A stretch of 64,000 nt of DNA from a virus (IMGVR_UViG_3300042535_000023:1-64000), one strand, 5' to 3'; numbered from the stretch's first letter, positions 22,532 through 64,000 are shown. Numbers and translations: made by a program. The notes: generated from the letters alone by a model not told the origin.

Positions 22532-22535
22532 TAAA

Positions 22536-23063
22536 CTAGGCCCCCACCCACTCGTAACAACCTATAGCTACTAAACCATTATCATTAACACTTACATTTA
22601 ACAGAGTAAATCCAAGTTCGTATCTAATTTCTTTATCGCTCCAATGGTAATGATGTGTCTCAAATGGATTACCTATAGCATTACCGTCTTGAATACAAAC
22701 AGTTACAGGTATAGTTAAGTATATTCTACTCACATTGGTTTTCAGTTTATTTAAAAATTCTAAGGCGTCTTCTCTGGATAAATGTTCCAATACATCACCT
22801 AGAACCGCAACTGTATATTTTTTATTAAATTCAAATTGCCTCAAGTCTATGTTATATAATTCATTATAAAATTGAGGTAAATTATACTTAATTATATAAG
22901 GTTTCCAAGCCTCTATACCTTCTATCCAAGATACCCTACCTTTAAGTAATTTTCCCCATTTGCCCTCACCAATGCCTATATCTAAAACAACGTTGTTTGG
23001 ATTAGAAATAATCTTTCTAACTATGATATTGGTACCTAAATCTGATTGCTGTGATTGTGGCAT
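22536..23063 (-). CDS. Class I SAM-dependent methyltransferase
   Basis: VLDIGIGEGKWG, GIEAW, GDVLEHL, GNPFETHHYHW. Confidence 0.85.
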   Translation of the reverse strand: MPQSQQSDLGTNIIVRKIISNPNNVVLDIGIGEGKWGKLLKGRVSWIEGIEAWKPYIIKYNLPQFYNELYNIDLRQFEFNKKYTVAVLGDVLEHLSREDALEFLNKLKTNVSRIYLTIPVTVCIQDGNAIGNPFETHHYHWSDKEIRYELGFTLLNVSVNDNGLVAIGCYEWVGA

Positions 23064-23902: not shown

Positions 23903-23903
23903 A

Positions 23904-24974: not shown

Positions 24975-24976
24975 TT

Positions 24977-25801: not shown

Positions 25802-25810
25802 ATAATTCCT

Positions 25811-41838: not shown

Positions 41839-44800
41839 TTAACCGAAGATTAATAAATTATCTCTTGTTGAATAGTTGGTTGCTTTAGTCCAAGCACCTG
41901 ACCTTTGAATATTTGATATACGTGTCTCATCTAAATATCCCTTATAAGTATATCCTGTTCTAATATCTAAACCACTAAATATAATAGAAGTTCCACTTGC
42001 TACGGTAAAACCTGAAACGGAGAATTGATCATGAAGGGCCCCATTCTTATATGTCTTTGCAACACTTCCATCATAGTTAATACTAACATGTGCCAGCTCT
42101 AACTCTTGAATAGTAAATGTGGTTTCTGGAGTTAGCCCCGATATTGTTTTTGTGCTGGACGCTCCGTGCCAATTATAATGTATAATATACTTTGTTGGTG
42201 TTGCTGAAATCACGTTATTACCCCAAGCCCCATCTCCCTGCAAAGGCTTCATAAATGTTTCTACTGTGCAAGAAGTGAATCCTGGGAAATTATTTACCTG
42301 ACCTTCAGCATAAGATCCATCACAATATAAAGATCCGCCTCCATTAATTATTCCACTAACAAACTCAGGTGTTCCATACACACAAGGTCTATTAGAAGAA
42401 CTCTCAACAAACGATCCATCAAAGTGCCATACCCCTAAATAATTATCATCCCAAACGTCTTGTGCTATAGTAGAGCCACTATCATCTATCAAATTACTAT
42501 CTATGTCTATATTATACCACAAATAAATTTCGGTGTCAACAGAAGAACTTATAAAAGGCACCTTTACCCACATATGGGCTGAACCTAAAGTATGGTTCCA
42601 ATAAGAAATTTCAGCAGGGCAGGTTACTTGAGAACCAAAAGCATTAGCTATAAATCTTATTTTCTTCCTATTATCATAACTTTCTCCTGATCCATCAGAA
42701 AGAATTTCAAACAAAGAAGTAGAATCATAGTCACTACTTCCTGAAGTTAGCCCTATATTAACAAGTATTGGAAAATTTGTCAAGTCAGAATCTATCTTAG
42801 TATGATCTATCCTTATTCTAATACTATTTCCTTCATTAAATTCCCCATATGTGCCCACTATAACGGATCCTATGTCTTCTGTCAACTTATTTCTTTCACC
42901 AGTTATATATGAAATCAATTCATGTTGATAATTTGATCTTGAAGTTACATCCATTCTGCTTGGTAAATCTCTGAAACCTTTATATTTATAACCAACACTT
43001 AAAACTCTAGCACTTATATCTTTGTAACCACCCACCGCATTTATTAATGACTCTAAATTATATTTTCTTAAAATACTAACACGATCTATGACATCCCTCA
43101 TAGCTTCATCTATTGTAGAATAATCTCTTAAATCAAATATATATTTTTTCTTTACTTGTGCTCTATCTATTGTATTATCAGTTACTTTTTTAAATCCTTC
43201 TATTCTTATAGACCATTTAGAATTCCTATCTGCTTTATACACTTTTTCTTCGCCCGAAAAAAAGTAATATTGATCTACTGCTTCTCTAAAAGCAAACTCG
43301 ACCTCCCTTTGCCAGAAAGGTTCACCAGGAATAACATTTACAACTATATCTCTAGACTTAACTTCATCAAATCTATCTTTCATTGTATATGAAAGATTAA
43401 TAGTAGCTATTATACTAGCCCCTAAATCCATATACAAAGGCTGCCCATAAATATAGGAGTAAAAATCAAAGGTGTTTTGTCGTTTATAACGAACGGTAAA
43501 GTAATTGTAAGTGTAACTCGGCTGTCTAACACTAAATGACAATGGTATCCTTGTAACTTCTCTTCTATTATACCTTATTGTTATAGAATCTTCAACTAAA
43601 TATTGTTCAGAATTAATATATGATTTAATATCAAACATATTATCAACTATGCTCGAATAAATATAACCCCTCAAATCAAATTTAACTTTTGGATTTATAT
43701 AGGCATTTAAATCTTTATACCCAGAGCCAAAACACGCGGCGTTTATTACACCTTTTATATCTATATGAGACAGCAAAGCAATATTTATAAAGTTTTTTAC
43801 TAAAGTTATTTTTGGAACCAGCTGAGATGGTATATTTATTAACTTACCAACTGAAAAGATATAAGCCCCTAAATTAAAGGGCTCTATAGTTTCAATATAT
43901 GAGTTTATATTTTGTTCGCCATAACTTGTCACATAACCAGGTAAATCTAAAGATACCTTAAGCCCAAGCATACATTTTAAATATGCTTTTAAATCCACAG
44001 GCTGAACCACATTAATATAAGCCCTAATATCATTAGCTCCATACTCAGCTAACATATAGGCAGGTAAATCAAATATGTGCCAAACATCAATACTACTTGA
44101 TATATCTACAGGTCTTACAGCTTGTAAATAAGCACCCAAATCCTTAGGCGGGGCTTTAATTCCTAATTTACCCCACAAAAGAAATGAATTATAAATATGA
44201 GGAACAATACCTGGTAAATCATACTCCGCCCAACCATGTAAAAAAGCGGCCACATTTTTTATAACATTACGAGCATACACCCGCATTATATGGTTTATAT
44301 CTATAGATAATCTAAAATTAACTTTTAAATAATTTGGTATATTATGAGTGGCAGGAGTCCAACCGCGTATGGCTACTTTTAAATTCTTTTGATTTAATCT
44401 ATGCCAAGGTCTTATAGTTTGAAAATAATCATATTGTTCTGGATAAGTAGGTTTTAAATACTCTGCTACATCTTTTTCTAATCTAAAATTAGGTTTTAAA
44501 TAGTTTGGTATATCACGCTGTCCTGGTTTCCAACCTCTAATAGTATTAAAAATATCCTTACTATTATCACGGGAATAACCTCTAATAAGATTAGAAACAT
44601 TATATTGGTCTTTGCCCCACATTCTTATGGTTGAAAATACATCTTTAATATTACCAACAGAATACATTTTAATTACTGAGTTAACATCCAAAAAGGAATT
44701 AATAGCTGGTTTTATGTAATGTATTAAATCTACTGTATCTTTTATTGTGGGTTTAACATAATTTTTTAAATCTTTAATATACCATTTACCGTTAATAGTT

Positions 44801-45288
44801 CCACGCAAATCAAAATGAGGTGGATTTACCTTTAAATAGCCACCTATATCCCTTATACCACCATATCTACAAGGTAATTTTAAAGTTTTTGGTCCTCTAC
44901 TATCATAACCTACTATAATTGTAGGACAATCTTTTAAATAAGTATAATCACTGTTCTGATAAATACCCATAGCAGTCATAATTGAAGATATGTCTAAAAC
45001 TTCTTTAAACACGCCACGAATTGTATTTTTTATATTTATGTAAAATGGAGAATATAGATAGGCATTTAAATCATAAGAACTTTTAAACTTTATACCGGTA
45101 ATATCTGAAGATACATTTTCTTGGCCGGGAGCAAAAACCTTAATTATAGAATTAAGATTAACGGTCCCCTCACTAACAACCCCATAAGAAAATTTAAATT
45201 GAAGATCATCGTTTGAAGGAGGAGTATAACCTACATCCGAAAACTTAAAAAAGAGGTTATTTGAATTTGGTGGATTATAATCTGCCAA
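41839..45288 (-). CDS. Large virion/fibre protein: short-period repeats + DUF2341 + LamG
   Basis: TTG start after GGAGG; many 12-15 aa repeats; IDHTKIDSDLTNFPILV...MWVKVP...VWDDNYLGVWHF; GYLDETRIS. Confidence 0.8.
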   Translation of the reverse strand: MADYNPPNSNNLFFKFSDVGYTPPSNDDLQFKFSYGVVSEGTVNLNSIIKVFAPGQENVSSDITGIKFKSSYDLNAYLYSPFYINIKNTIRGVFKEVLDISSIMTAMGIYQNSDYTYLKDCPTIIVGYDSRGPKTLKLPCRYGGIRDIGGYLKVNPPHFDLRGTINGKWYIKDLKNYVKPTIKDTVDLIHYIKPAINSFLDVNSVIKMYSVGNIKDVFSTIRMWGKDQYNVSNLIRGYSRDNSKDIFNTIRGWKPGQRDIPNYLKPNFRLEKDVAEYLKPTYPEQYDYFQTIRPWHRLNQKNLKVAIRGWTPATHNIPNYLKVNFRLSIDINHIMRVYARNVIKNVAAFLHGWAEYDLPGIVPHIYNSFLLWGKLGIKAPPKDLGAYLQAVRPVDISSSIDVWHIFDLPAYMLAEYGANDIRAYINVVQPVDLKAYLKCMLGLKVSLDLPGYVTSYGEQNINSYIETIEPFNLGAYIFSVGKLINIPSQLVPKITLVKNFINIALLSHIDIKGVINAACFGSGYKDLNAYINPKVKFDLRGYIYSSIVDNMFDIKSYINSEQYLVEDSITIRYNRREVTRIPLSFSVRQPSYTYNYFTVRYKRQNTFDFYSYIYGQPLYMDLGASIIATINLSYTMKDRFDEVKSRDIVVNVIPGEPFWQREVEFAFREAVDQYYFFSGEEKVYKADRNSKWSIRIEGFKKVTDNTIDRAQVKKKYIFDLRDYSTIDEAMRDVIDRVSILRKYNLESLINAVGGYKDISARVLSVGYKYKGFRDLPSRMDVTSRSNYQHELISYITGERNKLTEDIGSVIVGTYGEFNEGNSIRIRIDHTKIDSDLTNFPILVNIGLTSGSSDYDSTSLFEILSDGSGESYDNRKKIRFIANAFGSQVTCPAEISYWNHTLGSAHMWVKVPFISSSVDTEIYLWYNIDIDSNLIDDSGSTIAQDVWDDNYLGVWHFDGSFVESSSNRPCVYGTPEFVSGIINGGGSLYCDGSYAEGQVNNFPGFTSCTVETFMKPLQGDGAWGNNVISATPTKYIIHYNWHGASSTKTISGLTPETTFTIQELELAHVSINYDGSVAKTYKNGALHDQFSVSGFTVASGTSIIFSGLDIRTGYTYKGYLDETRISNIQRSGAWTKATNYSTRDNLLIFG

Positions 45289-45301
45289 AACTTAAACCTC
45301 C

Positions 45302-45601
45302 TTAAAATATTACGTTTATGTCTACAACATTCGAACTATCCAAAGTTTCTTGAGCTCTTCCTGCCTGAGTTGTTGAATAAAAATCATACAAAGATCTGGT
45401 AGAACTATTTATTACACTAACTGTTCCTGATGAGGCTAAATAAAAATTACCTTTATTTATTCCAGCTGATGGATCCGCCCAAATAGAAGTAAGATTAGAA
45501 GAACCTTTCAGTATAAAACCATAAAAAGTTCCTATAGGAGCAAAATCAAAGTCTAAATTATAAACCTCTATGGGGTCATCAAAGTTAAAATCTGTGGCCA
45601 T
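45302..45601 (-). CDS. Small virion-associated hypothetical protein
   Basis: 99 aa in the structural block, GGAG RBS. Confidence 0.7.
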   Translation of the reverse strand: MATDFNFDDPIEVYNLDFDFAPIGTFYGFILKGSSNLTSIWADPSAGINKGNFYLASSGTVSVINSSTRSLYDFYSTTQAGRAQETLDSSNVVDINVIF

Positions 45602-45610
45602 AATTAGCTC

Positions 45611-46234
45611 CTAAGAAGTTTCTGGTATAATCCAATCATGAACTATTGTATTAAAGTCTAAATTATTTTCATTAAAACAAACAATATAATAAGGAGTTGT
45701 TAGACTCACAGAAGTCTCAAAAGTATAATGTCCAGTAACATCGCTCCACGTTTCACTTAATAACTTTCCGGTATCTCTATGATAAAGACGTAACATTCTG
45801 GAAACTGGATTTATGCCCTTTTTTGTTACATGCCCTGTCACAAAACCCCTTTGCTCCATTTGCCAATCACCATGCATTAATAAATTTTCTTGCATGGTGG
45901 AGCCAAAAAAAGAAACTTGTGGTCTATTATTTATAGTAAAAGTAGGTGTATTTTTTATACCATTACCAGTCAATCTGCCTTGCTGTGGATCTAACTTATA
46001 AATAGAAGATATAACCTGTGGGGGTTTAATATTAATATCATCTGTTGATGATAAATCTACCACACCATAATAAACACTGTTATCTCTTATTATGGGGGAC
46101 ATAACATGAATATCATCTACAAAGGTCTCTATGGTAAGGTATAACTTATTATCTCTTAACACGGGCGACGTGATGTGTATATCATCCGCAGTATTTGAAG
46201 GTATTCCGACAACTACATTTCCAAGATCTGCCAT
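45611..46234 (-). CDS. Tail-associated protein with C-terminal beta-sandwich
   Basis: Three DDIxIxxP repeats; RLYHRDTGKLL..TWSD..G.YTF...N..VHD.IIP, similar to the C-terminus of ORF 49703..54856. Confidence 0.7.
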   Translation of the reverse strand: MADLGNVVVGIPSNTADDIHITSPVLRDNKLYLTIETFVDDIHVMSPIIRDNSVYYGVVDLSSTDDINIKPPQVISSIYKLDPQQGRLTGNGIKNTPTFTINNRPQVSFFGSTMQENLLMHGDWQMEQRGFVTGHVTKKGINPVSRMLRLYHRDTGKLLSETWSDVTGHYTFETSVSLTTPYYIVCFNENNLDFNTIVHDWIIPETS

Positions 46235-46242
46235 AGATTATC

Positions 46243-47148
46243 CTATACTATCGGTGTATACCAATCACCGGTTATTTGAAAACATAAATTACCAGTATAA
46301 ATAGGACACATATAAAAAGTATTTCCTGATAATGCCCCTGATCCTTCAAAAGACATAGGATTACGAAATTGAGTAGTTCCTGCTATTATAGGATCAAATA
46401 ACCCAGGTAGGTATCCCAAAAAAGTATAATCATGCATAAGTTTAATTCTATCTATATGCATGGCCCCTGTTAATCTATCGGGATATACTAAATAACCATG
46501 TGATCCTATAGTTGCTCCATCTCCAGTTGTTCTAAAAACACACTGAGTAGAAGGAACAAGTAGATGATTCCAAGCTCTTCTTATATATTTACCGCCGCTG
46601 GTAAATTGTTGGCCTTGTATCTGGGAATTCCAACCATTAGTTGAGTGTTGTTGTGTTACTAAAAGTGTGTTGTAAGGAAAATCGGCCGAAGTGCATAAAT
46701 AATCTCCAAAAAACTGCATATTTCTGTAATCCATATAAGTGGTTGGGTAAGAAGCATAAGAAACACCACTTATAAAATAAAAACTTCTATCCGTAGCATA
46801 AATTTCCCAAGTATTATCTGATGTGACGCTGGTAGCTTTCCAAAACCGACTGTAAATATAACTCTCAGTAACGAAAGGCTCCGTGCCTGTATTTATATCA
46901 GACATTGTAGCGTAGGCATTAACAGACGTATAAGTTTGGGTATCATCTACTCTCAAATAACACCTTCTTCCCGCCGGAGCTCTATATACAGCCAGATTAG
47001 TTCCAGCAAATACTTTTGACCAACCAGCTGAAGGCTTTGAACCATAACCATTAACTAAACAAGCGTCCAAAACTTTTATAAGTTCGCCGGCCACATTACT
47101 CTGAGTTGGAGCTGATGTATCACTCCATCTATAAACAAATACACTCAT
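46243..47148 (-). CDS. Tail/tail-fibre protein, paralog 1
   Basis: AP...G.L..VLDACLVNGYG.K..AGW...VYR...YLRVDD N-terminus known from phage tail proteins. Confidence 0.75.
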   Translation of the reverse strand: MSVFVYRWSDTSAPTQSNVAGELIKVLDACLVNGYGSKPSAGWSKVFAGTNLAVYRAPAGRRCYLRVDDTQTYTSVNAYATMSDINTGTEPFVTESYIYSRFWKATSVTSDNTWEIYATDRSFYFISGVSYASYPTTYMDYRNMQFFGDYLCTSADFPYNTLLVTQQHSTNGWNSQIQGQQFTSGGKYIRRAWNHLLVPSTQCVFRTTGDGATIGSHGYLVYPDRLTGAMHIDRIKLMHDYTFLGYLPGLFDPIIAGTTQFRNPMSFEGSGALSGNTFYMCPIYTGNLCFQITGDWYTPIV

Positions 47149-48759
47149 AATTTTCTCCTAAATTTAATACCAACTGGTGCTGGTATTTATAAAAACCTGC
47201 GCGTTCATTAAAGGAATAACACTCATAACAGTTCCTGACATAGTAACATCCCCATCAACTGTAAATGTATCCATATTTGTATAAGGCTGTCTATGCAATG
47301 GCTCATAAAGTCCTGGCATATCTCCCATATAAGCACCATTGGCCACTAATCTTACTTTATCCATTAATAATTCACCAGTGGCTGGGTTTGGAAAAGTTAT
47401 TGCATTATAATAACCAAGGTTAGTTTTACCAAAATTAAAATAAGCTATGGCTCTATTACCATTACCCTTTAGATAGTCCCAATAACGCCAACAACGTTTT
47501 CCATTAGTATCATAATTAATAGAATTTATATTATAGCCAGCTGAAGCCCTACTAGCATCACCTGTAATACCGTGAGTAAGCATAGTATTATATGGAAACT
47601 CTGTGTCTCTACATTTATAGTCCCCGAAAAAATTTAAAACTCTACTTGTGTAAGAAGCATTACTACACATAACAATATAAAAACTTCTATCTGAAGCATA
47701 AACCTCCCATCTTGCGGTTACACCAGAAACAGTAGAGTCAACCTTCCACCAAACTCTACTTGTGTCATTCCAATCGCTGAAGGGCTCCTCACCTGTGTTT
47801 ATATCAGACATTGTAGCGTAGGCCTGAACTTGAGCAAACCTGTAATCGCCGGCCGAAATCGGAGCATTATCATCAATATATAAATAACAGCCCCTAGAAC
47901 CAGAGAGAGTTGACCTAAATACGGCTTTGCCGGAGCCTACATCCTCATAAGGACATTGCCAGCCAGCACCTGAAATGGTAACTCCAGAAGAAGTGGTCCA
48001 TCCATCCACTAAACACTTTTTTAACACAGTATTTAAAGACCCTTTAGTGTAGTCCAATAAAGGGGCGCCTTGATCCAAATATGTATATTTATGAATTAAA
48101 CTCATCTATGTCTCCTATGTCCAAGGGCCTGTAAGATCTATAACACACATACTATTATAGCAAGGTAAACAATATAAATTTCTTCCTGATAGACTACCTG
48201 AACCAGAAAAAGTTACTGGATATGAAACTGCTGATGATGGGCTATGTATGATGTCGTATAGTCCTGGCATTTTTCCAATTAAACTTGAATTCTGCACCAT
48301 ATTGACAGGCTCTATTACCATGTCCCCCAAAATAGGATCAGGAAAAACTGATAAAGCAGTATGTAGCCCAAGGTAACTAGAATTTCCAACCGTCAGGTAA
48401 GTAAATTGCTGACCTGTCTGTAAAATTTCATTCCAACCACGTCTACAGTATTTTCCAGAAGTATTTATAGTCTGAAGATCATAATTATATTCCATATTAT
48501 CTCTATAAGTGCCATTAACACCATGTATTAAAGCTGTATTATAAACAAAGGCAGTATTCCTAGCTACATAATCTCCAAAAAAGAATATAGCTTTATGTGC
48601 GACAACTGTAGCATGACTACCAACATAGTAAAAAGAAGTGTCTGATGCTATAACTTCCCAAGGATTTGCTGCATTGTCTTGACTTTGGCACCAATTAACT
48701 GCAGCAGAGTTTGTAAACGGCTCAGTTCCCGTATTTATATCAGACATTGTAGCGTAGGC
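46892..48759. repeat. Exact 26-bp direct repeat, 3 copies (46892-46917, 47798-47823, 48734-48759)
   Basis: TTTATATCAGACATTGTAGCGTAGGC, one copy in each tail paralog. Confidence 0.92.
47164..48105 (-). CDS. Tail/tail-fibre protein, paralog 2
   Basis: Same architecture: VLKKCLVDGW, YLYIDD, AYATMSDINTG, FFGDY, MPGLY. Confidence 0.75.
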   Translation of the reverse strand: MSLIHKYTYLDQGAPLLDYTKGSLNTVLKKCLVDGWTTSSGVTISGAGWQCPYEDVGSGKAVFRSTLSGSRGCYLYIDDNAPISAGDYRFAQVQAYATMSDINTGEEPFSDWNDTSRVWWKVDSTVSGVTARWEVYASDRSFYIVMCSNASYTSRVLNFFGDYKCRDTEFPYNTMLTHGITGDASRASAGYNINSINYDTNGKRCWRYWDYLKGNGNRAIAYFNFGKTNLGYYNAITFPNPATGELLMDKVRLVANGAYMGDMPGLYEPLHRQPYTNMDTFTVDGDVTMSGTVMSVIPLMNAQVFINTSTSWY

Positions 48760-48999
48760 CTGAACCACTGCATATCCAGATGCGTTAGAATTATCTACTC
48801 TTAAATAACATCTATTACCAGAAGGTGGGCGATAAACCCTTAGGTTAGCTCCTGTATATACTATAGACCAACCAGCGGAAGCCTTAGAACCATAGCCATT
48901 AACTAAGCATGCATCTAAAACACTAACTAACTGGCCAGCAGTAAAGTTTGTTATTTGTGGGGCACTTGCATCTGTTGAGCTATATTTTGTTATTGCCAT
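48115..48999 (-). CDS. Tail/tail-fibre protein, paralog 3
   Basis: Same architecture: VLDACLVNGYG, YLRVDN, AYATMSDINTG, FFGDY, MPGLY. Confidence 0.75.
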   Translation of the reverse strand: MAITKYSSTDASAPQITNFTAGQLVSVLDACLVNGYGSKASAGWSIVYTGANLRVYRPPSGNRCYLRVDNSNASGYAVVQAYATMSDINTGTEPFTNSAAVNWCQSQDNAANPWEVIASDTSFYYVGSHATVVAHKAIFFFGDYVARNTAFVYNTALIHGVNGTYRDNMEYNYDLQTINTSGKYCRRGWNEILQTGQQFTYLTVGNSSYLGLHTALSVFPDPILGDMVIEPVNMVQNSSLIGKMPGLYDIIHSPSSAVSYPVTFSGSGSLSGRNLYCLPCYNSMCVIDLTGPWT

Positions 49000-49007
49000 A
49001 AAATCTC

Positions 49008-49703
49008 CTATCTCATATGGTAAATACCTACTCTATTTGTTCCTTCATCAATAACAAAAGCCCCTGATGTGGTAGCTACAAATAGAACATTGTTTATTTT
49101 ATTAAGTGATGTTTTTTCAGTTACATAAATATCATTTATTTTTTCATTCTTTGGTAATTTTGAATCATCCGTTAAATATTTATAAGATGACTCTTCCCAA
49201 TTATTTAATTTATTTGTTTGAACATCTATTTCCCAACCAGCTACACCTGAAATAGTATAGTATAACTCACCATAACTTGTAATATGACACTTTTCGGCCC
49301 GGCCTCCGCCGGTTATAGTAGTAATACTTTTATAACCCTGTGGTATGGCCTCAATTAAAGAAACCCTTGTTCCTGAATTAGAGACTATACCTAAAAAATT
49401 ACCATTAGCATTAACATAATTAACATTATTACTTTCTATATAAGGGGAGGTTAAATAATCTTCTAAACAATTATATAAATTATAAGGAGTAATTACACTA
49501 CCACTAATACAAGTCTTGTTTACCCTTTTTAGCCCGCTGTAAGTAGTTCCAATATAAACATAATCTTTGGCCCCAGTTATTGATACGGTATCCTCTAATG
49601 GTATATAAGCACACAAATCATTAGTATCTACTGTGTATATACTTAACTGACTTGCTGCAGCTGCGTAAATATAATTACTATCTGTATATATTTGTTTTAT
49701 CAT
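49008..49703 (-). CDS. Virion-associated beta-propeller-like protein
   Basis: 231 aa, beta-rich: YIYAA, YVYIGT, LFVATTSGAFVI. Confidence 0.65.
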   Translation of the reverse strand: MIKQIYTDSNYIYAAAASQLSIYTVDTNDLCAYIPLEDTVSITGAKDYVYIGTTYSGLKRVNKTCISGSVITPYNLYNCLEDYLTSPYIESNNVNYVNANGNFLGIVSNSGTRVSLIEAIPQGYKSITTITGGGRAEKCHITSYGELYYTISGVAGWEIDVQTNKLNNWEESSYKYLTDDSKLPKNEKINDIYVTEKTSLNKINNVLFVATTSGAFVIDEGTNRVGIYHMR

Positions 49704-54856: not shown

Positions 54857-54867
54857 ATATTACCTCG

Positions 54868-57597
54868 TTATATTCCCCACCAAACTTTTAATCTAGTGGT
54901 TTCATTTGTGTCGAAAGATTCATTAGGAAAATTAGTCTGAATATATAAAGGCTGGCTTGAATTTGGCTGTATATCTTCCACTTTTACCGCCGGCGGAGAA
55001 AGTATCTCATGAATTATAGGTGTCACAGAAGGATTATTAGTCATCAAATCAAACTTAACTTGGTGATATTTAGTTTTAGGTAAAAAATAACCACTAGCTT
55101 TTACTTTTTGCCAAGCCAAAGTCCCACTAACTCCCCAAACTGGATCATAGGTTGCTGGTAAGACTTGTATATCACTTTTACAATGTGTATCATGTTCTAC
55201 ATGATAAATATCAAAAAATCCTGTAGTAGTATAACCGGTTGTCATAGTTTTAAGTATATTCCCATTATTATTATAAATAATTATGCTATCATTAGAAGCG
55301 CTATAAACTGCTACATACCCTTTTTCTGCGCGAATTTGTGTAGGAGCTGACACAGCAAAAGTAATTCTTCTAACCCCAGAACTATCATGATGGCTAATTT
55401 GATTATTATTAGCCCCCCAAAATCCATCAGAACCATCATTACAAATATAATACATAGAGTGGGTGGCTTGTATGATTCCTAAAGAACTACCATCATCAAT
55501 AAATCGTTTAACAGTATAACCAACAATGTCTGAAACCCAACACCCCCCATCCCCTGTAGAACAAACTGCTCCTGGATCTGTCATAGATGTATCACTAAAC
55601 AAAGAGTTACCTGAACTATCTAAATGAACCAAACTTTTGTTAGATTTGTCTATATACCAAACACCACCTCCATTTATTTCTGGAGAAAAGTTTTTAATAT
55701 AATCAAAAGTCGATTGATAAGACCAAACAACAACAAGACTACCACTACTATAATCTATTAAAACAAATTTTGTGTGACTTTTACAATACGCCCATAAACG
55801 ACCATTCCCATCATAAGATAGTCCCCCATCAAATGCATAATCGTTACCTAAACTAGAAACATTATTTATTAACAATTTACCAGTGTTAATTACCTTTACT
55901 GTCTGCAGTACATAATCCCATGGGGCGGAAATGGAAGTATTAACAAAAACATGTCCTTGTTTTCTACATACAGCTGTTCCTATAGTAGTATAATAATTAT
56001 TATATCCAGGATTTGACCAATTATACCAAATGGCATTTTCTATATTTGTATATAAGTTATATGTATATATAACTGTAGCATATATGGTGCTTGCTTTATA
56101 TCCCCAATAAATTTCATCCACCGCTACAGGCTCTATATTACTACTTCTTACATTTATTGTTCCACCATACACATTTAAATCGTCGCCTATAGTAGTCCCA
56201 CTAACTACTGTGGTGGTAGTTAATAAATAACTTGAAGAATATTGATCTGGAAAATTAAATATTGGTGTAAGATAAGAACCTGAGGCAGTAACTAAACTAC
56301 CAATCGAAACAAATCCTGTAGGAATAGGGTAAGAAAAAAAGGCACTATCAAATCTAAAAGTTACTTTATCATTCTGATGATATAGTGCAGCTGCTGGCCT
56401 AATTGGGGTAGTTTTACTTTTTATGAAAGCCAGATTAGTATAATTAGGAGAAGTATCAGTGGATGGATTACCACTATTTTGCCAAACTCCATTTTTTGAA
56501 AACCAAATAGAACCATAAGTATGATCAACTGCTATACCTATTACATCATTTGTTGTGTATGCTGAACCCATACCAAAAGCACCGTTATTATAATAACCAT
56601 TCCCATCATAACCATAATAAGCTATACTAGTAGAATTGTTTCCTGGGTAAGTATCTATATTATAAGTTATGTTACCTATACCTATCATCATGTGTGTAGG
56701 AGAGGTTAATTGATCCACTTTTACTTCAAAATAATATTTACCATGCATTATAGCGCCGGCCGTTTGGCCGGCTTTCCAAGAATCAGTAACAGTTTTAGTT
56801 AAAGAAAACCCACTTATAGTTATAGCTGAATTAACATTATTACTATCAAAAACAAAAGGCTCTGTTTTATATAATTTAATAGTATTACCTGATACACAAG
56901 TAAAATCTCCAGGAAAAGTTCCTAAATCCCATCTGTAGTCAGTATTTATATTATCACTACCTATAGCAAAACCATCTTCTAAGCCATAAAACTTATTCTG
57001 CTCTCCGTTATAAAGTTTAATATATTTATCAGACTCTTCTCCTGTATAATCAATAGTAATATAAGCATTGGCTACAGTATCACCGCTATTGTATAAATCT
57101 ATATGAGATACATCTCCGGATAACATATTATTAAGAGTTATGTCTGATTCATTTCCTTCCACGCCAAAACTTACTATCTCATCGTTATTTAATGCTTTTA
57201 TTTCCAATAACTCACAAGTAGTATTAGTAATATAAAATCTAATATATCTTGGAGAAAAAGAGTCTGGAAGATTTTCAACATAAAAATATTCGGAATTAAA
57301 ATTTCTTGTAAGATTGGTATAAGAATCAACCTCATAATTTTTATAAGATAGGTTCATATTACCTAAAATGGTTCCAGATGCTGTAGAGCTACTTAAATAT
57401 ATCCTTATATCACTAATATTTATTCTATTAGATAGATCTATATCTAAATATAAAGTCTGGCCTGTTAAGGATGCGCCTGAAGAAGTAGTGTTATTATTTA
57501 CAAGTTTAGCTAATTGATCGTAGGATAAACTAATGCCGACCCCAGAAACTGTGGTTGATTTTATTATCCCATCAAGTATTATATTATCCTTGGGCAT
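54868..57597 (-). CDS. Virion protein with SPRY domain and C-terminal beta-propeller
   Basis: GKYYFEV...DVIGIAVD...WFSKNG; GGVWY/GGCWV/DGFWG blades. Confidence 0.8.
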   Translation of the reverse strand: MPKDNIILDGIIKSTTVSGVGISLSYDQLAKLVNNNTTSSGASLTGQTLYLDIDLSNRINISDIRIYLSSSTASGTILGNMNLSYKNYEVDSYTNLTRNFNSEYFYVENLPDSFSPRYIRFYITNTTCELLEIKALNNDEIVSFGVEGNESDITLNNMLSGDVSHIDLYNSGDTVANAYITIDYTGEESDKYIKLYNGEQNKFYGLEDGFAIGSDNINTDYRWDLGTFPGDFTCVSGNTIKLYKTEPFVFDSNNVNSAITISGFSLTKTVTDSWKAGQTAGAIMHGKYYFEVKVDQLTSPTHMMIGIGNITYNIDTYPGNNSTSIAYYGYDGNGYYNNGAFGMGSAYTTNDVIGIAVDHTYGSIWFSKNGVWQNSGNPSTDTSPNYTNLAFIKSKTTPIRPAAALYHQNDKVTFRFDSAFFSYPIPTGFVSIGSLVTASGSYLTPIFNFPDQYSSSYLLTTTTVVSGTTIGDDLNVYGGTINVRSSNIEPVAVDEIYWGYKASTIYATVIYTYNLYTNIENAIWYNWSNPGYNNYYTTIGTAVCRKQGHVFVNTSISAPWDYVLQTVKVINTGKLLINNVSSLGNDYAFDGGLSYDGNGRLWAYCKSHTKFVLIDYSSGSLVVVWSYQSTFDYIKNFSPEINGGGVWYIDKSNKSLVHLDSSGNSLFSDTSMTDPGAVCSTGDGGCWVSDIVGYTVKRFIDDGSSLGIIQATHSMYYICNDGSDGFWGANNNQISHHDSSGVRRITFAVSAPTQIRAEKGYVAVYSASNDSIIIYNNNGNILKTMTTGYTTTGFFDIYHVEHDTHCKSDIQVLPATYDPVWGVSGTLAWQKVKASGYFLPKTKYHQVKFDLMTNNPSVTPIIHEILSPPAVKVEDIQPNSSQPLYIQTNFPNESFDTNETTRLKVWWGI

Positions 57598-59852
57598 TAT
57601 CTACTCCATTTTATAGACAAATTAATATTTAAATCTTTAGGTTCTTGTATGTTGACCAATTTTACATATATACTTTTACTTTCTCCGGGGGAAATATTTT
57701 CTAATTTTACTGTTGGATAAGTTAATACCCTTCTAATTTTAGTAGAAATATGATCATGCTCAGAAACAAAGGTAAATTTTAATTGGTAATAAGAACTTTT
57801 AGGCAATTCGCCACCATTTTTATTTATAGTATACCAATCTAATTTACTAGTATCTCCCCACACAGGGTCGTAACTTAATGGAAATACCTTATAATCTATT
57901 TTACTTTGATCATCGTAGTCCAAATAAAAAACCGCCGGCTTAGAAGAAGTTACTCCAAAATTCTTAAATGTATTTATTATAACAAGGGTTACTTTATCTA
58001 TAACATAAACTACTCTTAATTTTTCACTATAAATATAAATATTTTTTGGGGATAAACATACATGATCTGCTTTGGATGGCAACATCATTTTAAACATAAG
58101 AACCCCAGAAATATCTATATGTCCTAAAATATCTCCGTTTATATACCAAACAGTGTCATCATCATCTGAATAAATGTAAGAGAGATTAAAATCTAAGGCT
58201 GAGGAAAAAGTAACAGCCCCATTGTGTGATACTCTATGAAGATTCCAACCTATAGACTCGAATACCCAACAACCATTATCAGTTGTTGAGGCTACAGCTG
58301 TAGGAGATGAAAAATATTTTTCATATAGTTTTGTTCCATAAGAATCCCTGTGAACTAGTGACCCCTTTTTTTTATTTGTATACCAAATACCACTACCACG
58401 TTTCTCTACTGAAAAATCATATATATAATCATCTTTATTTAAATTATAGGTCTCTGTAAAATCGGCTGCATTAATAATGTTAATATTAGTTAAAGTTCCT
58501 AAAATTTTACTATAGCCCCAAATAGAAGAACCTGCGTAAGAAAACTCCATCTTATTAAATTGAGAGTTAGTAGCAGAAACATTACTCAATAAAATACCAT
58601 CTTTATTATAAACAGTCAAGTATGTAGATGAATTATAAGCTATTAAATTTCTCAGAGGACTAACAGCCACACAATTAGGAGGAGAATAATAATTAGCAGG
58701 GTTCCAATATATATCTAAACTACCCAAAGTAGTGTTATATTTTTTAAGTCCTACACTGGTGCCCCAGTATAATTCCTCTAAAGCGATAGGTTTTGTATTA
58801 GAACTTCTTATTTCAACATTTTTTTCTAAACCACCAGAAACCTTTATCTCATCAATATCAATATAACTATTTTTTAATTTATCAATTGAATATAATATTG
58901 GTGATATATAAAAAGCATTAAATGGGACTTTATCTAAAATATAATCAGATACATAGGAATAAATAATTGTTTCGCCTACATATGGTAATAAAAAAATATG
59001 ACCTTCACCGGCCTCACAGTTAGCAGTAATTACTGACAAAGGTTGATTAGCGCCAACAATACAAACCATGTTACCGCCACCATAATTAATACTCATTTGT
59101 ATCTGATTAGAGATGGCAGAATAAAAAACCGGAATTATCGGTTGGGTATCTATATGGGGATTAGATATAAAATATGAATTACTAGTAACATCCCTAACAT
59201 AATTTGGATCATAATAACCCCAACCTGGAACAATATCATATATCCCCGCAGCAACAAAAATGGGGGCCTGATCCGCTAAAACAAAATTAATATAGCAACC
59301 ACCCCCAACATGACCATCGCCTGCTACAGCTATCCCAATTTGACAAGGAACACTAAAAGCTAATGATCCAATACTAGTAAAATAGCCCTTATTCTCTAAA
59401 ATAAACTCCAAATTATTAGAAAGATTCCAACTTCTTTCATAAAAAAGCCCAGCTAGATTTTGTAAATAACCACTTATAATATATACACCATTAACTACAT
59501 CTACGGTAAGATCTAAGGCAGTAAATAAACTATAACTACCAATACCGGATGCCAACACAAACAAACTTCCTGAAGTAGTTGTTATATCATCTGAACCTGT
59601 ATAACCTCTATCAACAGCAATGTGCCCATCAGAATCTATATAGGTTCCAGTAAAAGCACCTAAACTTTTATTTAATAATATATTTGTGCCAATTTCTAAA
59701 GAAAAATTGTTTGTTATTGGGGCTATACTAATATAATCATGACTACCATCTTCAGAATATTCTACATAAACATAAGCGTCGGAGGCAGTAGAACCAGAAT
59801 TAGTGATTGGTACCTCATAAACAAAGTCTATATCATCCATAACTATATCCAT
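57597..59852 (-). CDS. Virion protein with beta-propeller, paralog of 54868..57597
   Basis: Shared RSSNxxP..xELYWG, GIWY/GCWV blades, YDPVWG...LPK..YxQxKF, VKxExIxP. Confidence 0.8.
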   Translation of the reverse strand: MDIVMDDIDFVYEVPITNSGSTASDAYVYVEYSEDGSHDYISIAPITNNFSLEIGTNILLNKSLGAFTGTYIDSDGHIAVDRGYTGSDDITTTSGSLFVLASGIGSYSLFTALDLTVDVVNGVYIISGYLQNLAGLFYERSWNLSNNLEFILENKGYFTSIGSLAFSVPCQIGIAVAGDGHVGGGCYINFVLADQAPIFVAAGIYDIVPGWGYYDPNYVRDVTSNSYFISNPHIDTQPIIPVFYSAISNQIQMSINYGGGNMVCIVGANQPLSVITANCEAGEGHIFLLPYVGETIIYSYVSDYILDKVPFNAFYISPILYSIDKLKNSYIDIDEIKVSGGLEKNVEIRSSNTKPIALEELYWGTSVGLKKYNTTLGSLDIYWNPANYYSPPNCVAVSPLRNLIAYNSSTYLTVYNKDGILLSNVSATNSQFNKMEFSYAGSSIWGYSKILGTLTNINIINAADFTETYNLNKDDYIYDFSVEKRGSGIWYTNKKKGSLVHRDSYGTKLYEKYFSSPTAVASTTDNGCWVFESIGWNLHRVSHNGAVTFSSALDFNLSYIYSDDDDTVWYINGDILGHIDISGVLMFKMMLPSKADHVCLSPKNIYIYSEKLRVVYVIDKVTLVIINTFKNFGVTSSKPAVFYLDYDDQSKIDYKVFPLSYDPVWGDTSKLDWYTINKNGGELPKSSYYQLKFTFVSEHDHISTKIRRVLTYPTVKLENISPGESKSIYVKLVNIQEPKDLNINLSIKWSR

Positions 59853-59882
59853 AATCTTTCTCCTATAATATAGATAAGTTAC

Positions 59883-62800
59883 TTAAACAGGGGTTACCCA
59901 AGTGATTTCAAGGTTTGCTGTCTTCTTGCTGCAGGATTTAAAACTTGAGTCCTTATTTGTTCTAATAAATATAGGCACTTTTTCTCCTGCCGGAACTTGT
60001 TCGAATATAAAAGGAAATTGGCCATCAGAAACTTTATAAAAATTTATACCATCTTTAGATAACTCAACAAAACTATTTGGAGTAATGGCACTATCCTCTA
60101 TTGGGGATTGTTTTTCTATATCAAAGAAAGTTTTACAGTAATCGTAAACTCTTAAATTCTCAAAAATAGCACTACCAAAAGCATCATTATTATAAGCCAA
60201 AAATGTATTGGCACCGCCGAGTCTTAAATTAACCGATTTAGCATCCCCAATAGTCCATGGATCTTTGCTGGCTAATACTAAAACACCATTCAAATAAAGA
60301 CGCACTGTGTCCCCATTGTCAGTATTCATGCCATCATTGCTCCAAACTAAAGCCACATGCATTGGAACTTTATAACTAATATAAAATTCTGGTAATATTT
60401 TTTCACTATCATGCAAATAAATAATTTTATAATTTGTTTTAGCGTTACCAACACCAACCTCAAACCAAGAGGCTGATCTTATACCTAAAGAAACAATATC
60501 ATTATTATTATTTACCAAAGTAAATAAAGTTCTTGAATTTATATTCCCATATAAATCCAAACCTTGAGAATCACAATAAGGCTTAAACCAAAATTCTACG
60601 GTACCTTTATTTAATGTTAAATTAGATATAGGAATCTCTAAAAACTCGTTCCAAGTTAAACACAGCCCTTTACCAAAATGAACCGTATCTTCAAAATAGT
60701 TACGTTTAATCTTAAAACTATCTATACACATATAAAATGATTTTCCTACCCCAGAGTAAATCAACCCGATAGATTCAAAAGGCCTGTACATGAAATTTAA
60801 ATTATTATCTAATCTGCCAGTCGAATTATTTTTTGTAGGATTAGTAAAATCAAAATTATTAAAAGGTATCTCTATTTTGTTCCATCCTGTAACCAAATTC
60901 AAATTAGTAAAATCTTTTATATAATAACCTAACGGGGTATTATTTTTAAAAGAGCCGAAGGCTATACCACCGAAGGTAGTATCAATGGCCGTAATGTCAC
61001 TTATATATAACCAAAAAGATAACAAATCCATTTCAGAAAAATTATTATCTATATCAAAATTGTCTCCTTGTAAAAATTCTACTAAATCTATTCCTGAAGA
61101 AGTTGGATAATCTACTCTTAAAGATCTTTTTGATTCTTTAACATTTAAACTATCATTAGACAACGTGCTTAAAACTGACCGCCACCACCAATGATAGCTT
61201 ACTGGGTCAAATTTTTGATCTGAGTATATTCTAATATTCCCAACTGTATGTGGCCCGTAATGATTCGTATTATTATCGTAAGAATAATTAGTAGCCGTGT
61301 CATAAGTCAGGGCTATCCATTTTAATTTGTCTGCCCTCTTTTTTACTACTGGTATACCGACACCCCAAGAATATGGAGTACTTTCATGAATTACTCCTTT
61401 AATTATATAATAACCTTCATTTGAAATATGTAATAAACTATTTTGAGAAACCCAACCGGCACCTAATATAGAAGCTGATAGTTCAATAATATCTTTATTT
61501 CCTATAAATTGTAATCCTATAAAATTGTTTTTTAATGCACCATAAGATTCCCAAGTTACTGTATAAGAACCGACCGGCAAAAAAGTAGACTCGGAAAAAA
61601 TATACTCAATAGAATCAGACATCAGTTGTTTAATAGCAGATGAATAAAAAGTTAAATAATTACCGGCCGAGGTTGCAAAAGAAACTTTATTAGGATTATT
61701 ATTTGCACTATCTGAACAACTAAAAAACTCCCCGTACTCATTCCAAAGTTTATAATAATATAATCTACCTTCCTTAACAAATTGAGATTTACTAATAAGC
61801 TCATAGTTTGTGACACTAAAAAAATCCTTCATATTAATACAAATTATAGGATGGTCCTCGCTACTCATCTCACCGCCTTTAGATGTAGTGTATACTTCAA
61901 ACTCGCTAACAAAACCACCATCTAAGTGTAATGAAACATCTGCATCCGGATTATAAATATAATCATCTCCATGAGCATAATTCAATATCTTCAACCTGAC
62001 ACGCATAGCGTCCACTGGTGAAAAATAATGAGAAGTTATTAAATCTAAATTATCTTCTATATCTAATACTTTTTCAAAATCTTCTCCTGAGGCTGTTGAA
62101 GAAGTCCATACTGCGTAGTCTATATTATAATAAGCCTTATCATTACCTGGACCATGATAAATTACCACACGTTCTATATTTTGTATAGTATCGAATGTTA
62201 ATTCTAAAGTTGGGTCTTCATCAGAAGATAAAAATCCCCAACATGAATCGAAACTTCCAATAGATTTAATACCATCATTAACATTTGCTGGACTTAAGTT
62301 TGTAACAGTATAGGACGAACCACTAACTGTAACATAAGATGAGCCACTTACAGTTGCAGTAAGAGCCACATTTATAGGAGTAATATAATAATTTGTAAGT
62401 TTGCTACCCAAATCCACCCAATTACAATTATAGCCGCCTGCTCTTGTGTAAGGAGTAGTTATGTCTGGATAAACTCCTAGTTTGTCTATACACCTTGTGA
62501 CGCCATCACCGCAGGTTAAATTTATACGTAACCATCTCGCTTCTGGGTCTTCCAAATATGTATACTTTTCAGAAGGAACTGTAAAGGACTCGGTCCAAAG
62601 AGCTGTTCCTCTAATTATGATAATTTCATCTAAATAGCCTTTAAAGTAGTTTTGTGAATTATCTCCCCACATATAGTAGTAACCCACAAGAAAATACTCA
62701 TCAGCAGTACCTTGATGAAAATCTGATATAGCAAAAGCACCAGAATTTTGCAAAATACCATTTTTAAATGCGTATATTTTACCTTCTTTTCTACAAAGTG

Positions 62801-64000
62801 CCCAGTGTGTCCATGTATCGTAAGTAACAGCACCCATAGAAAAGGTATAATGTCCATAACCACCATAATACGATGCTAAATACATAATGTCCGCCGATAC
62901 AATTATTGAATACCCATAATTATTAGAATAAGACATAACAGAAGATATAGCTATACCTTTATTCCCTACTGCTCGCTTTTCCCACCAATGCATAGTAAAA
63001 TCATCGGTCCTCAACATTAATTTTTCTACAGTATTATCTGTAGATTTATATTTTACTTTTAAGTAAGAGGAGCCATTTAAGTAAAGGGAGCCTTCAGGGA
63101 ATTTATAAGTGCTTCCGCTTATTGTTGGGGTACCTACAGTACTAATTTTATAATAGTTTTGAGAAGTATCCACAAAATTAATAGCATCAAACTGTAATAA
63201 TAAAGTTGGTTTTGGATTATTCCATATAACCTTACTTGGTGATTCTACATCACTATTTGAATAATACGTCCTCATGTCCTTTGTTATAAAATACTTATTT
63301 GATAAAGACCCATAATTACGCACTATACTTAGGTTATGTGCTTTCTTTAAATCCACCGCTATCGAATTTTCATAAAAAGTATCATGCTTTCCTATAGTTG
63401 CGCTACCCAATTTTAAATAATTTATATTATTGTTACTTACATAAATATCAAAAGAAGTATTAAAAGTATTAATATGTCTTATTTTTATTGTATCAATTAA
63501 ATCACCACATTTTAAATTAAAAGCCACACTTCTCTGCCCTGATATAGAGTCATTACTTAACATAGGCGCCCCACATATTTTACACGCAAGAGTCCCTATA
63601 TTAGTTATTTTTATTTTTGCTATTTTGGAATCAGTCATATAACCGTTGTATATCTCGGTTCCATCTAATAAACAAACAAGATTTTTATTTTTACGTTTTA
63701 TTATTAATCTACTATTTGTCACGCGTGAAAAAGTAGTAACTTCAAAAGATGGAAAAGTATCCCTATTATTGCTTACAATAGTCATCATCTTATAGCTTGT
63801 GGAAGCATCACTAAAAAGTCTTACTTTACATACTAACTGATTATAAGCATCGTAAAAGTAATAGTTCATGTCTATAGTGGCTGTAGAGATACCTACAGCG
63901 TAAAAATGAACATCAAAAGTAAAATCGGATATTAATTCAACATCAGCTGTTATCTCGCTTAAACCTGTAGAATTAAACTTCGCATAACTATTATTTATAT
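59883..64000 (-). CDS. Very large virion protein (LamG + discoidin-like + LamG-like), 5'-partial
   Basis: Frame stays open from 63869 to the window end, so the true start lies outside; DDFTMHWW...WTHWAL...GYLDEI; GTVEFWFKP...HVALVW...LYLNG. Confidence 0.85.
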   Translation of the reverse strand, partial: INNSYAKFNSTGLSEITADVELISDFTFDVHFYAVGISTATIDMNYYFYDAYNQLVCKVRLFSDASTSYKMMTIVSNNRDTFPSFEVTTFSRVTNSRLIIKRKNKNLVCLLDGTEIYNGYMTDSKIAKIKITNIGTLACKICGAPMLSNDSISGQRSVAFNLKCGDLIDTIKIRHINTFNTSFDIYVSNNNINYLKLGSATIGKHDTFYENSIAVDLKKAHNLSIVRNYGSLSNKYFITKDMRTYYSNSDVESPSKVIWNNPKPTLLLQFDAINFVDTSQNYYKISTVGTPTISGSTYKFPEGSLYLNGSSYLKVKYKSTDNTVEKLMLRTDDFTMHWWEKRAVGNKGIAISSVMSYSNNYGYSIIVSADIMYLASYYGGYGHYTFSMGAVTYDTWTHWALCRKEGKIYAFKNGILQNSGAFAISDFHQGTADEYFLVGYYYMWGDNSQNYFKGYLDEIIIIRGTALWTESFTVPSEKYTYLEDPEARWLRINLTCGDGVTRCIDKLGVYPDITTPYTRAGGYNCNWVDLGSKLTNYYITPINVALTATVSGSSYVTVSGSSYTVTNLSPANVNDGIKSIGSFDSCWGFLSSDEDPTLELTFDTIQNIERVVIYHGPGNDKAYYNIDYAVWTSSTASGEDFEKVLDIEDNLDLITSHYFSPVDAMRVRLKILNYAHGDDYIYNPDADVSLHLDGGFVSEFEVYTTSKGGEMSSEDHPIICINMKDFFSVTNYELISKSQFVKEGRLYYYKLWNEYGEFFSCSDSANNNPNKVSFATSAGNYLTFYSSAIKQLMSDSIEYIFSESTFLPVGSYTVTWESYGALKNNFIGLQFIGNKDIIELSASILGAGWVSQNSLLHISNEGYYIIKGVIHESTPYSWGVGIPVVKKRADKLKWIALTYDTATNYSYDNNTNHYGPHTVGNIRIYSDQKFDPVSYHWWWRSVLSTLSNDSLNVKESKRSLRVDYPTSSGIDLVEFLQGDNFDIDNNFSEMDLLSFWLYISDITAIDTTFGGIAFGSFKNNTPLGYYIKDFTNLNLVTGWNKIEIPFNNFDFTNPTKNNSTGRLDNNLNFMYRPFESIGLIYSGVGKSFYMCIDSFKIKRNYFEDTVHFGKGLCLTWNEFLEIPISNLTLNKGTVEFWFKPYCDSQGLDLYGNINSRTLFTLVNNNNDIVSLGIRSASWFEVGVGNAKTNYKIIYLHDSEKILPEFYISYKVPMHVALVWSNDGMNTDNGDTVRLYLNGVLVLASKDPWTIGDAKSVNLRLGGANTFLAYNNDAFGSAIFENLRVYDYCKTFFDIEKQSPIEDSAITPNSFVELSKDGINFYKVSDGQFPFIFEQVPAGEKVPIFIRTNKDSSFKSCSKKTANLEITWVTPV

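Follow-up and report, generated by a model that had tools for sequence, protein, structure and literature searches.

Why do the virion proteins of an uncultivated phage repeat one four-residue pattern, Thr, any residue, Ser, Gly (T-x-S-G, written T.SG below), far more often than their composition predicts, and what might the pattern be for? The question is raised by the 64,000-nucleotide stretch IMGVR_UViG_3300042535_000023:1-64000 (the window), which makes up the opening 64 kb of a contig of 82,191 bp labelled G000. A preliminary description of this DNA had noticed the pattern and proposed that it is the acceptor for a neighbouring island of glycosyltransferase (GT) and sulfotransferase genes, which would give the particle a proteoglycan-like coat. 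Here we examine how specific the enrichment is, where it occurs, and which explanations fit it.

Enrichment and make-up of the motif

The structural half of the window (41839-64000) encodes large beta-rich proteins with LamG_3, SPRY and F5/8-type-C domains; their PHROGs matches are to 'baseplate wedge / virion structural protein' and, for three paralogues, to 'tail assembly'. Within the 7,200 aa of these structural open reading frames (ORFs), 31 copies of T.SG were counted, against 4.67 +/- 2.04 expected from per-protein shuffles (z 12.9), and none of 500 composition-preserving shuffles attained that number. The recount agrees with the hand count of about 31 made earlier, with identical numbers for each protein, and the shuffles bear out the rough guess of four to five random copies. 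The proposed comparison with T.GS, which occurs 7 times against 4.6 expected, also favours a specific enrichment of T.SG. Further controls stayed near expectation, both those with one residue replaced (S.SG 7 vs 5.8; T.TG 4 vs 4.0) and the permuted forms S.TG, G.ST and GS.T. Among 21,683 gapped tripeptides in six gap shapes, T.SG ranks first with a Poisson P of 8e-16, the runner-up having a P of 2.5e-6. The 49 non-structural ORFs (12,800 aa) contain 3 copies against 2.6 expected, namely TVSG in a Big_9 protein (8561-9187), TKSG in the DNA polymerase and TNSG in a 2-epimerase; about two had been reported, one of them in an exported FnIII protein. Over the whole contig, the count is 44 vs 8.1 in 19 structural ORFs and 3 vs 2.5 in 52 others.

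All three fixed positions are strict. In the structural ORFs of the contig, the first position of ?.SG is occupied by T 44 times against 8.1 expected, with S at 11 vs 9.7 and V at 10 vs 6.4. The middle position of T.?G holds S 44 times, T 6 times (vs 7.0), N 8 times (vs 5.7) and D 5 times (vs 5.3), and after T.S there are 44 G, all other residues being near expectation. Counting the Thr as position 0, the neighbours also show preferences (T, V, A, S or P at -1; V, I, A, T or S at x; T, V, S or I at +4), so that the full motif can be written [T/A/V/P]-T-[V/A/I]-S-G-[T/I/V/S]. Its surroundings are almost uncharged: the 44 motifs have one D and no E at -1, no D and one E at x, and no D and one E at +4. 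Across 185 instances from four genomes, information is found only from -1 to +4, every other position reaching at most 0.17 bit, and D and E are depleted. Such a lack of flank information indicates a linear motif of six residues that recurs in unrelated contexts, and it rules out a longer repeat or domain signature.

Could the excess be a product of chance, composition bias, a DNA-level signal or internal repeats? The structural proteins are indeed rich in the three residues (T 7.9, S 10.0, G 8.0%), and TVSGSSYVTVSGSSY is a short tandem duplication whose two T.SG copies are not independent. Such an origin is nevertheless close to inconceivable. It is already refuted by the shuffles, T.SG leads the next tripeptide by 9 orders of magnitude in P, the flanks are uninformative, and the excess is replicated in all 43 related loci described below. 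The Ser codons at the motif are 20 TCN and 11 AGY, with mixed Thr and Gly codons. Use of both Ser codon families means that the constraint is on the protein, not the DNA, and rules out a DNA-level motif.

Spread through the lineage and turnover of sites

The closest comparison is offered by G001, a syntenic 175-kb IMG/VR contig, the same stretch of which is also present in a 269-kb record. Its 175 kb are estimated to be 66% complete, and the genome may be 260 kb or more, of which 82 kb are seen in G000. The G001 locus L002 has 23 T.SG against 5.9 expected. By region, the excess in G001 is found in the block orthologous to window 41839-64000 (23 vs 6.0) and around a conserved 533-aa protein (10 vs 1.9), and is weaker in the region of the terminase and putative major head protein (10 vs 4.6), the latter protein itself having no T.SG. 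No excess was observed in the early genes (1 vs 1.4), in the replication and GT block (3 vs 2.6) or in a 7,570-aa PhageMin_Tail protein (2 vs 3.2).

The enrichment extends well beyond this pair, and is broader and stronger than first described. Four relatives found through the 231-aa protein of the window are all enriched (L028, 19 vs 3.3; L029, 28 vs 3.5; L030, 38 vs 5.0; L031, 23 vs 4.1), and the replication genes adjoining their loci have zero copies. Around the 533-aa protein (48-66% identity), 43 of 43 loci are enriched, with ratios of 1.6 to 6.7 (median 3.5) and a pooled total of 559 vs 139 in a set that includes a few duplicate stretches of one phage. An unbiased motif scan of 38 of these loci again places T.SG first (437 vs 110), with a P value that overstates independence because the sequences are related. 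In 22 unrelated SPRY/LamG phage loci, which have only the SPRY domain in common with the query, the count is 90 vs 72.7. This ratio of 1.24 rules out a generic property of LamG, SPRY or beta-sandwich phage proteins. Outside the clade, the baseplate family shows a 2.2-fold excess, largely due to one column (21 of 62 T.SG in 109 aligned homologues).

The 533-aa protein falls into 548 clusters in a large protein collection, and no match was found among 50,697 phage records, either for this protein by tblastn or for 12 kb by megablast. The lineage is abundant and uncultivated, with no cultured member among those records. Its identity with the 'moraphage' lineage, for which excerpts of PMC12619734 give four core glycosyltransferases, was considered and is not established; the T4-like markers of that lineage (gp19, gp25, gp6 and sheath) were undetected here with PHROGs.

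We compared the fate of individual sites between orthologues. Of the window motifs that align with G001 orthologues, 11 of 23 have T.SG in the partner, where independent conservation of T, S and G predicts about 5%, and the x residue is free to change (V/S, Y/S, I/F, M/L, P/I, E/A). Taking G000 and G001 in both directions, the exact motif is kept at 22 of 42 sites (52%). The control [STDN].[DN]G is kept at 9 of 46 (20%; Fisher P 0.0017 vs T.SG) and [^T].SG at 14 of 90 (P 2e-5 vs T.SG), and neither T.[DNT]G (0/19) nor T.S[^G] (0/65) is ever kept. Judged from these alignments, the exact triad is under purifying selection. Roughly half of the sites turn over, yet their density remains high, which is the behaviour of functional short motifs and not of fold-determined residues. 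Some groups of sites are stable: four T.SG in the C-terminal 150 residues of the 1,717-aa protein are kept in G001 and three of them also in the relative G003, L028 has T.SG at all four of these columns, and all three copies of the 231-aa propeller protein are conserved in its G001 orthologue.

Proposed glycosylation and its rivals

Two glycosyltransferases of the window are conserved in the lineage (Table 1). The GT4-family enzyme is 59-63% identical across the relatives G001-G003, and 16 further viral loci encode it at 52-68%. It was found in every relative searched with it, including 5 of 5 contigs with the lowest T.SG ratio, and no relative lacking it was found among those searched. The best 120 of 548 matches in a profile search with the 533-aa protein are all at least 50% identical, which left no outgroup to choose. 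For both GTs, the best sequence match in the Protein Data Bank is the chlorovirus protein B736L (3oy2; E 2.4e-7 for GT4 and 1e-4 for the 372-aa GT). In excerpts of a review, B736L is proposed to help build the chlorovirus glycan, its activity being unconfirmed (PMC4691112). The GT4 gene is split in frame in G007 and G008. In G007, the insert scores above the Pfam cut-offs for Intein_splicing (41.9 bits, cut-off 35.8) and LAGLIDADG_3 (31.8, cut-off 22.5) and lies at about residue 296/297 of the 427-aa GT4 (L122, G007:C1:63300-66200, ORF 130-2682); inteins in glycosyltransferases are, to our knowledge, unusual.

The sugar island as a whole occupies 16373-30128, inside the replication and nucleotide half of the window, and its variable part also encodes two GT2 enzymes and several ORFs without a family. 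The sugar genes shared with relatives encode a PseB/FnlA-like 4,6-dehydratase, an RmlD-like reductase and a WecB-family 2-epimerase, which suggests a pathway of the 6-deoxy-N-acetylhexosamine (6-deoxy-HexNAc) type. The remaining content varies by phage. In G000 it comprises a sulfotransferase and several methyltransferases, and in G001 a different set: a GT17-like enzyme, a DXD-type GT, a formyltransferase, a deacetylase, a C-methyltransferase and a Mom-like protein. BLAST detected no homologue of the sulfotransferase (21863-22531) in G001-G003, and only one of five relatives searched has a match, a weak one at 27%.

T.SG is a short linear motif under selection at strand-to-turn junctions of external tail, baseplate and fibre proteins in a large clade of big phages. 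Its most likely role would be that of an acceptor, glycosylated in the cytoplasm by a phage-encoded protein O-glycosyltransferase, for which the GT4 is the best candidate, possibly together with the 372-aa GT. The island, variable from phage to phage, would supply and decorate a glycan of the 6-deoxy-N-acetylhexosamine type, decoration in this phage including methylation and perhaps sulfation, and the outcome would be a strain-specific sugar coat on the tail. A strict triad gained again and again on loops and turns of unrelated external proteins, its restriction to one lineage and a core GT accompanied by a fast-changing island are together best explained by an acceptor for phage-directed tail O-glycosylation. 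From these sequence comparisons, we give a probability of roughly 0.45 to T.SG being an O-glycosylation acceptor for phage-encoded enzymes, the best single explanation. We infer the modification of the Ser (or Thr), its being a sugar, and the enzyme responsible. A fuller version is put forward more tentatively: T.SG may be the first defined sequon of cytoplasmic phage-encoded O-glycosylation, in which the core GT4, important enough to harbour an intein, would start the glycan on surface hairpins and fast-evolving islands (methyl, formyl, sulfate, 6-deoxy-HexNAc) would diversify it. The acceptor role proposed in the preliminary description thus gains from the enrichment in external virion proteins and the co-occurrence with the GT, and loses its sulfotransferase part, that enzyme being sporadic.

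More distant homologues of the GT4, with 25-36% identity, are encoded by a few isolated phages, and four of them (29-36%) were examined. Synechococcus phage S-CBS4 has the gene between portal and head protease, with another GT and a methyltransferase alongside. The gene comes after that of the capsid in Microcystis phage Mae-JY09, belongs to a small sugar cluster upstream of the terminase in Tetrasphaera phage TJE1 and is beside the primase in S-EIVl. The annotated structural proteins of all four contain more T.SG than expected: 6 vs 2.6 in TJE1 (P 0.046), 20 vs 8.7 in S-CBS4 (P 7e-4), 7 vs 3.2 in Mae-JY09 (P 0.044) and 12 vs 4.1 in S-EIVl (P 1e-3). Pooled, they give 45 vs 18.5, above the control loci (binomial P 3e-4), for which the protein sets were defined differently from those of the isolates. 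Xp12, the sole GT4-free isolate added as a control, has 3 vs 2.6. Matched GT-free relatives of S-CBS4 were not found, a query with its tail protein matching only S-CBS4 itself.

Several points weigh against the glycosylation reading. The excess in the GT4-bearing isolates is modest and suggestive only: 6 of the 12 copies in S-EIVl lie within one protein, and naive ORF calling in place of annotated coding sequences gives 5 vs 4.8 for TJE1 and 3 vs 3.0 for Mae-JY09. The link between motif and GT4 is a co-occurrence with no discriminating case, inseparable from common descent, and the phages of the lineage are known only from metagenomes. The GT4 gene has an exonuclease and ThyX as neighbours, among genes for replication and nucleotide metabolism, and excerpts of 10.1101/2023.12.21.572611 describe phage GT clusters that glycosylate DNA. 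The structural position of the motif was taken from the secondary structure of two AlphaFold (AF2) models. The remaining points come from homologues. In one column of the baseplate family, T.SG is found in 21 of 109 homologues outside the clade; distant homologues of the 231-aa protein carry S-D-D-G, S-D-E-G or S-T-N-G at one T.SG site; and in the C-terminal domain of the 1,717-aa protein, T.SG aligns with T-D-G in G003. T-x-S-G fits a tight hairpin, and at some sites at least it does have a structural role.

The two models show where the motif falls. The 313-aa protein (pLDDT 86.3, pTM 0.89, 110-sequence alignment) resembles the baseplate of phage JBD30 (8rk3, chains G and K), and all five of its T.SG are in loops adjoining strands. 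Two of these, in tandem at residues 38-47, form an insertion relative to its two paralogues, and its five motif columns have T.SG in 0, 0, 0, 0 and 3 of 109 family homologues. The 231-aa protein is modelled as a beta-propeller (pLDDT 86.9) with its three T.SG at or beside the tight turns that link blade strands into hairpins; the Ser is within the turn in two motifs, and the third (residue 150) is at a strand end just before the turn. Taking both models, 7 of the 8 motifs have their Ser in coil, where the coil background is 52% (P 0.04), in line with the earlier remark that many copies lie in linkers or loops. The models suggest that motifs sit on pre-existing turns or on added loops.

T.SG could accordingly be read as a purely structural or assembly motif: the sequence that this lineage favours for tight beta-hairpins, maintained because its beta-rich external proteins need it to fold or to be stable, and unmodified. 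This would fit the strand-to-turn location in both models, the filling of the same turns with S.DG, S.NG or TDG in distant homologues of the propeller and of the 1,717-aa C-terminal domain, the recurrent baseplate column, and the lack of the motif in alpha-helical or internal proteins such as the PhageMin_Tail giant. We regard it as rather unlikely, for a turn should tolerate D, N and S, whereas S.SG, T.DG, T.NG and T.TG occur at expectation. A beta-branched V or I at x is also unusual for a turn residue. Moreover, the beta-sandwich proteins of unrelated phages have no such excess, retention of the exact triad exceeds that of comparable turn motifs 2.6- to 3.4-fold, and new sites arise in inserted loops. 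A hairpin preference leaves unexplained the convergence of a single clade on these three residues, at 40 or more sites in each genome and across unrelated folds.

Less likely still, the motif may be recognized by a partner that is not a GT. The partner might be a kinase, an acyl-, phosphoglycosyl- or ADP-ribosyl-transferase, a chaperone or decoration protein, or a host ligand, and the island would then serve DNA hypermodification or the host surface. T.SG acts as a selected short linear motif with no chemical tie to sugar, and other enzymes may be encoded elsewhere, since only 82 kb of the genome are seen; G001 encodes a hybrid histidine-kinase/receiver protein, ClpP and DnaJ. In the window, however, neither a Ser/Thr kinase nor another protein-modifying enzyme was found. 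As for DNA, ThyX lies in the replication block between the genes of the GT4 and the 372-aa GT, and the multi-enzyme clusters that glycosylate phage DNA likewise combine several GTs, HAD-like enzymes and sugar-activating genes near nucleotide metabolism (excerpts of 10.1101/2023.12.21.572611). In the same excerpts, though, those clusters adjoin a C5-cytosine methyltransferase with 5mYOX, or ThyS-type enzymes. None of these usual partners was found in the window, itself a fragment of a larger genome; its methyltransferase is of the N6/N4 type, paired with an IceA-like nuclease, and its thymidylate synthase is ThyX and not ThyA-like. In the isolates, by contrast, GT4 homologues sit among head and tail genes, and DNA glycosylation would leave the protein motif unexplained.

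Gene surroundings, known systems and significance

Every long ORF of the window is on the minus strand. The first part (1-41770) is devoted to replication and nucleotide metabolism, encoding ligase, RNase HII, class II ribonucleotide reductase (RNR), dUTPase, family A polymerase, clamp loader, ThyX, exonuclease, RuvC, DnaJ, primase, DnaB, UvsX and sliding clamp. The features that bear on the motif are collected in Table 1. At the window's edge, the protein previously described as 1328 aa (59883-63869) is the truncated part of a 2,502-aa ORF spanning contig 59883-67391, whose G001 orthologue is 38% identical over 2,081 aa. In the 909-aa protein, three T.SG fall within the first 75 residues and the other two border the SPRY domain; its orthologue in L002 is 33% identical over the full length. 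The three baseplate paralogues differ sharply in T.SG number, as had been pointed out for two of them. Further downstream on the contig are motif-bearing proteins of 533, 490 and 1,123 aa and a 1,888-aa protein without T.SG.

Table 1. Virion proteins and sugar genes of the window, with their T.SG copies
Feature	Position	Strand	Remarks
Variable sugar island	16373..26689	minus	KdsC-like phosphatase, RmlD-like reductase, PseB/FnlA-like 4,6-dehydratase, methyltransferases, sulfotransferase, WecB-family 2-epimerase
372-aa GT1-like glycosyltransferase	26699..27817	minus	44-53% identity in G001-G003
427-aa GT4-family (GT-B) glycosyltransferase	28845..30128	minus	candidate protein O-glycosyltransferase
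1,149-aa virion protein, C-terminal LamG_3	41839..45288	minus	1 T.SG
Minus-strand ORF	45611-46234	minus	0 T.SG
301-aa baseplate paralogue	46243..47148	minus	0 T.SG
313-aa baseplate paralogue	47164..48105	minus	5 T.SG, all lineage-specific
294-aa baseplate paralogue	48115..48999	minus	1 T.SG, at the family's one recurrent T.SG column
231-aa beta-propeller protein	49008..49703	minus	3 T.SG at blade hairpin turns; WD40/BamB-like
1,717-aa protein, five LamG_3 stretches and one SPRY	49703..54856	minus	9 T.SG; resembles 'baseplate wedge / virion structural' families
909-aa SPRY-domain virion protein	54868..57597	minus	5 T.SG
751-aa virion protein	57597..59852	minus	2 T.SG; no family match
C-terminal 1,371 codons of 2,502-aa virion protein	59883..64000	minus	LamG_3 and F5/8-type-C; 5 T.SG in the window, 6 in all

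Several neighbouring genes deserve a record in their own right. The 208-aa Big_9 Ig-like protein (8561-9187, minus strand), with TVSG at residue 138, has no homologue in G001-G003 and may decorate the virion or be exported. A 111-aa MtN3/SWEET (PQ-loop) membrane protein (4541-4876, minus strand), a semiSWEET-type sugar transporter, is 53% identical in G001. An RlaP-family nucleotidyltransferase (5248-6024, minus strand) and the RNR (9811-12321, minus strand) are 85% and 88% identical to their G001 counterparts, structural proteins being 31-66% identical. In the replication block, an IceA-like nuclease (PF05315, E 6e-26) overlaps the N6/N4 DNA methyltransferase at 36970-38363 (minus strand), forming a restriction-modification-like pair that has no full-length homologue in G001-G003 and a 49-aa partial methyltransferase match in G002 only. 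Between the structural genes at contig 73782-74831 (L001:11591-12640, minus strand), a 349-aa endonuclease with Phage_endo_I and double zinc ribbon domains, absent from G001-G003, is probably a mobile homing nuclease. C..CG is the top gapped tripeptide of the non-structural proteins (11 vs 0.54; 67 vs 5.9 in related loci), probably owing to zinc-ribbon or DnaJ-type CxxCxG motifs.

Other observations concern the relatives. Giant single ORFs of 7,570 aa (G001 57168-79880, loci L037-L039), 8,048 aa (G003 32474-56620) and 4,530 aa (G002 5331-18923) are present, the G001 protein having a PhageMin_Tail domain of the tape-measure type near residue 3,600, and a separate protein of about 1,900 aa without a family match lies directly before the baseplate genes. 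G001 further encodes a protein with a MazZ-like dATP/dGTP diphosphohydrolase N-terminal domain (L036:2807-3139), an intein-bearing large terminase (L036:5618-8674) and, inside its sugar island, a Mom-family protein (L042:6583-8181). These genes hint at DNA base modification in the lineage.

How does a glycosylation motif of this kind compare with known systems? The analogy drawn earlier was with animal proteoglycans, and here too the proposed acceptor is a Ser with Gly after it, and this one phage encodes a sulfotransferase. The acceptor context of xylosyltransferase at Ser-Gly is, however, acidic, and the flanks of T.SG are uncharged or beta-branched with a strict Thr at -2 from the Ser. Unlike a sulfated glycosaminoglycan (GAG) system, most relatives lack the sulfotransferase though all are enriched in T.SG. 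With non-acidic flanks, a sporadic sulfotransferase, a pathway resembling that of 6-deoxy-HexNAc and no GAG polymerase seen among the sugar genes of the window, the idea of a proteoglycan-like coat of sulfated GAG is not supported. The general O-glycosylation sequon of Bacteroidota, D-(S/T)-(A/I/L/V/M/T), belongs to a periplasmic system, and virions assemble in the cytoplasm. It does not describe these sites either, D preceding the Thr in 1 of 44 motifs and the Ser in none. In the literature, we found no defined acceptor motif described for phage virion glycosylation; we know of none, and such glycosylation is documented for very few phages.

Nearer parallels exist among viruses that encode their own enzymes. 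In mycobacteriophages, phage GTs are thought to O-glycosylate the phage's own virion proteins in the cytoplasm, as excerpts of PMC12619734 put it, with glycans at the C-termini of capsid and tail-tube subunits (Freeman et al. 2023, as cited there). GT genes in or near structural modules, as in some of the GT4-bearing isolates, are a further likeness. The differences are that the sites proposed here are internal four-residue candidates spread across tail, baseplate and fibre proteins, that the putative major head protein of G001 has no motif, and that hosts and lineage are unrelated. Chloroviruses and giant viruses glycosylate autonomously (excerpts of PMC4691112; see also PMC9614988): GTs and nucleotide-sugar enzymes are virus-encoded, and the virus's own particle bears unusual, strain-variable glycans. 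Those are eukaryotic viruses, though, with N-linked capsid glycans or glycosylated fibrils, and the B736L match is weak.

If T.SG is a sequon, virus-encoded virion glycosylation would be an already known kind of system, and the novelty would be an explicit phage sequon. A motif of four residues offers an experimental handle in the form of peptides for GT assays, Ser-to-Ala controls and a search mask for metaproteomes, and it might serve as a portable tag for glyco-engineering phage particles. Should the motif turn out to be structural, it would represent an unusual lineage-wide convergence on one hairpin sequence in unrelated folds. As a sequon, it would make glycosylated virions predictable from metagenome sequence and would explain the large, variable sugar islands of big phages. 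The tail of a widespread lineage would then carry a sugar coat comparable to the glycan shields of eukaryotic viruses.

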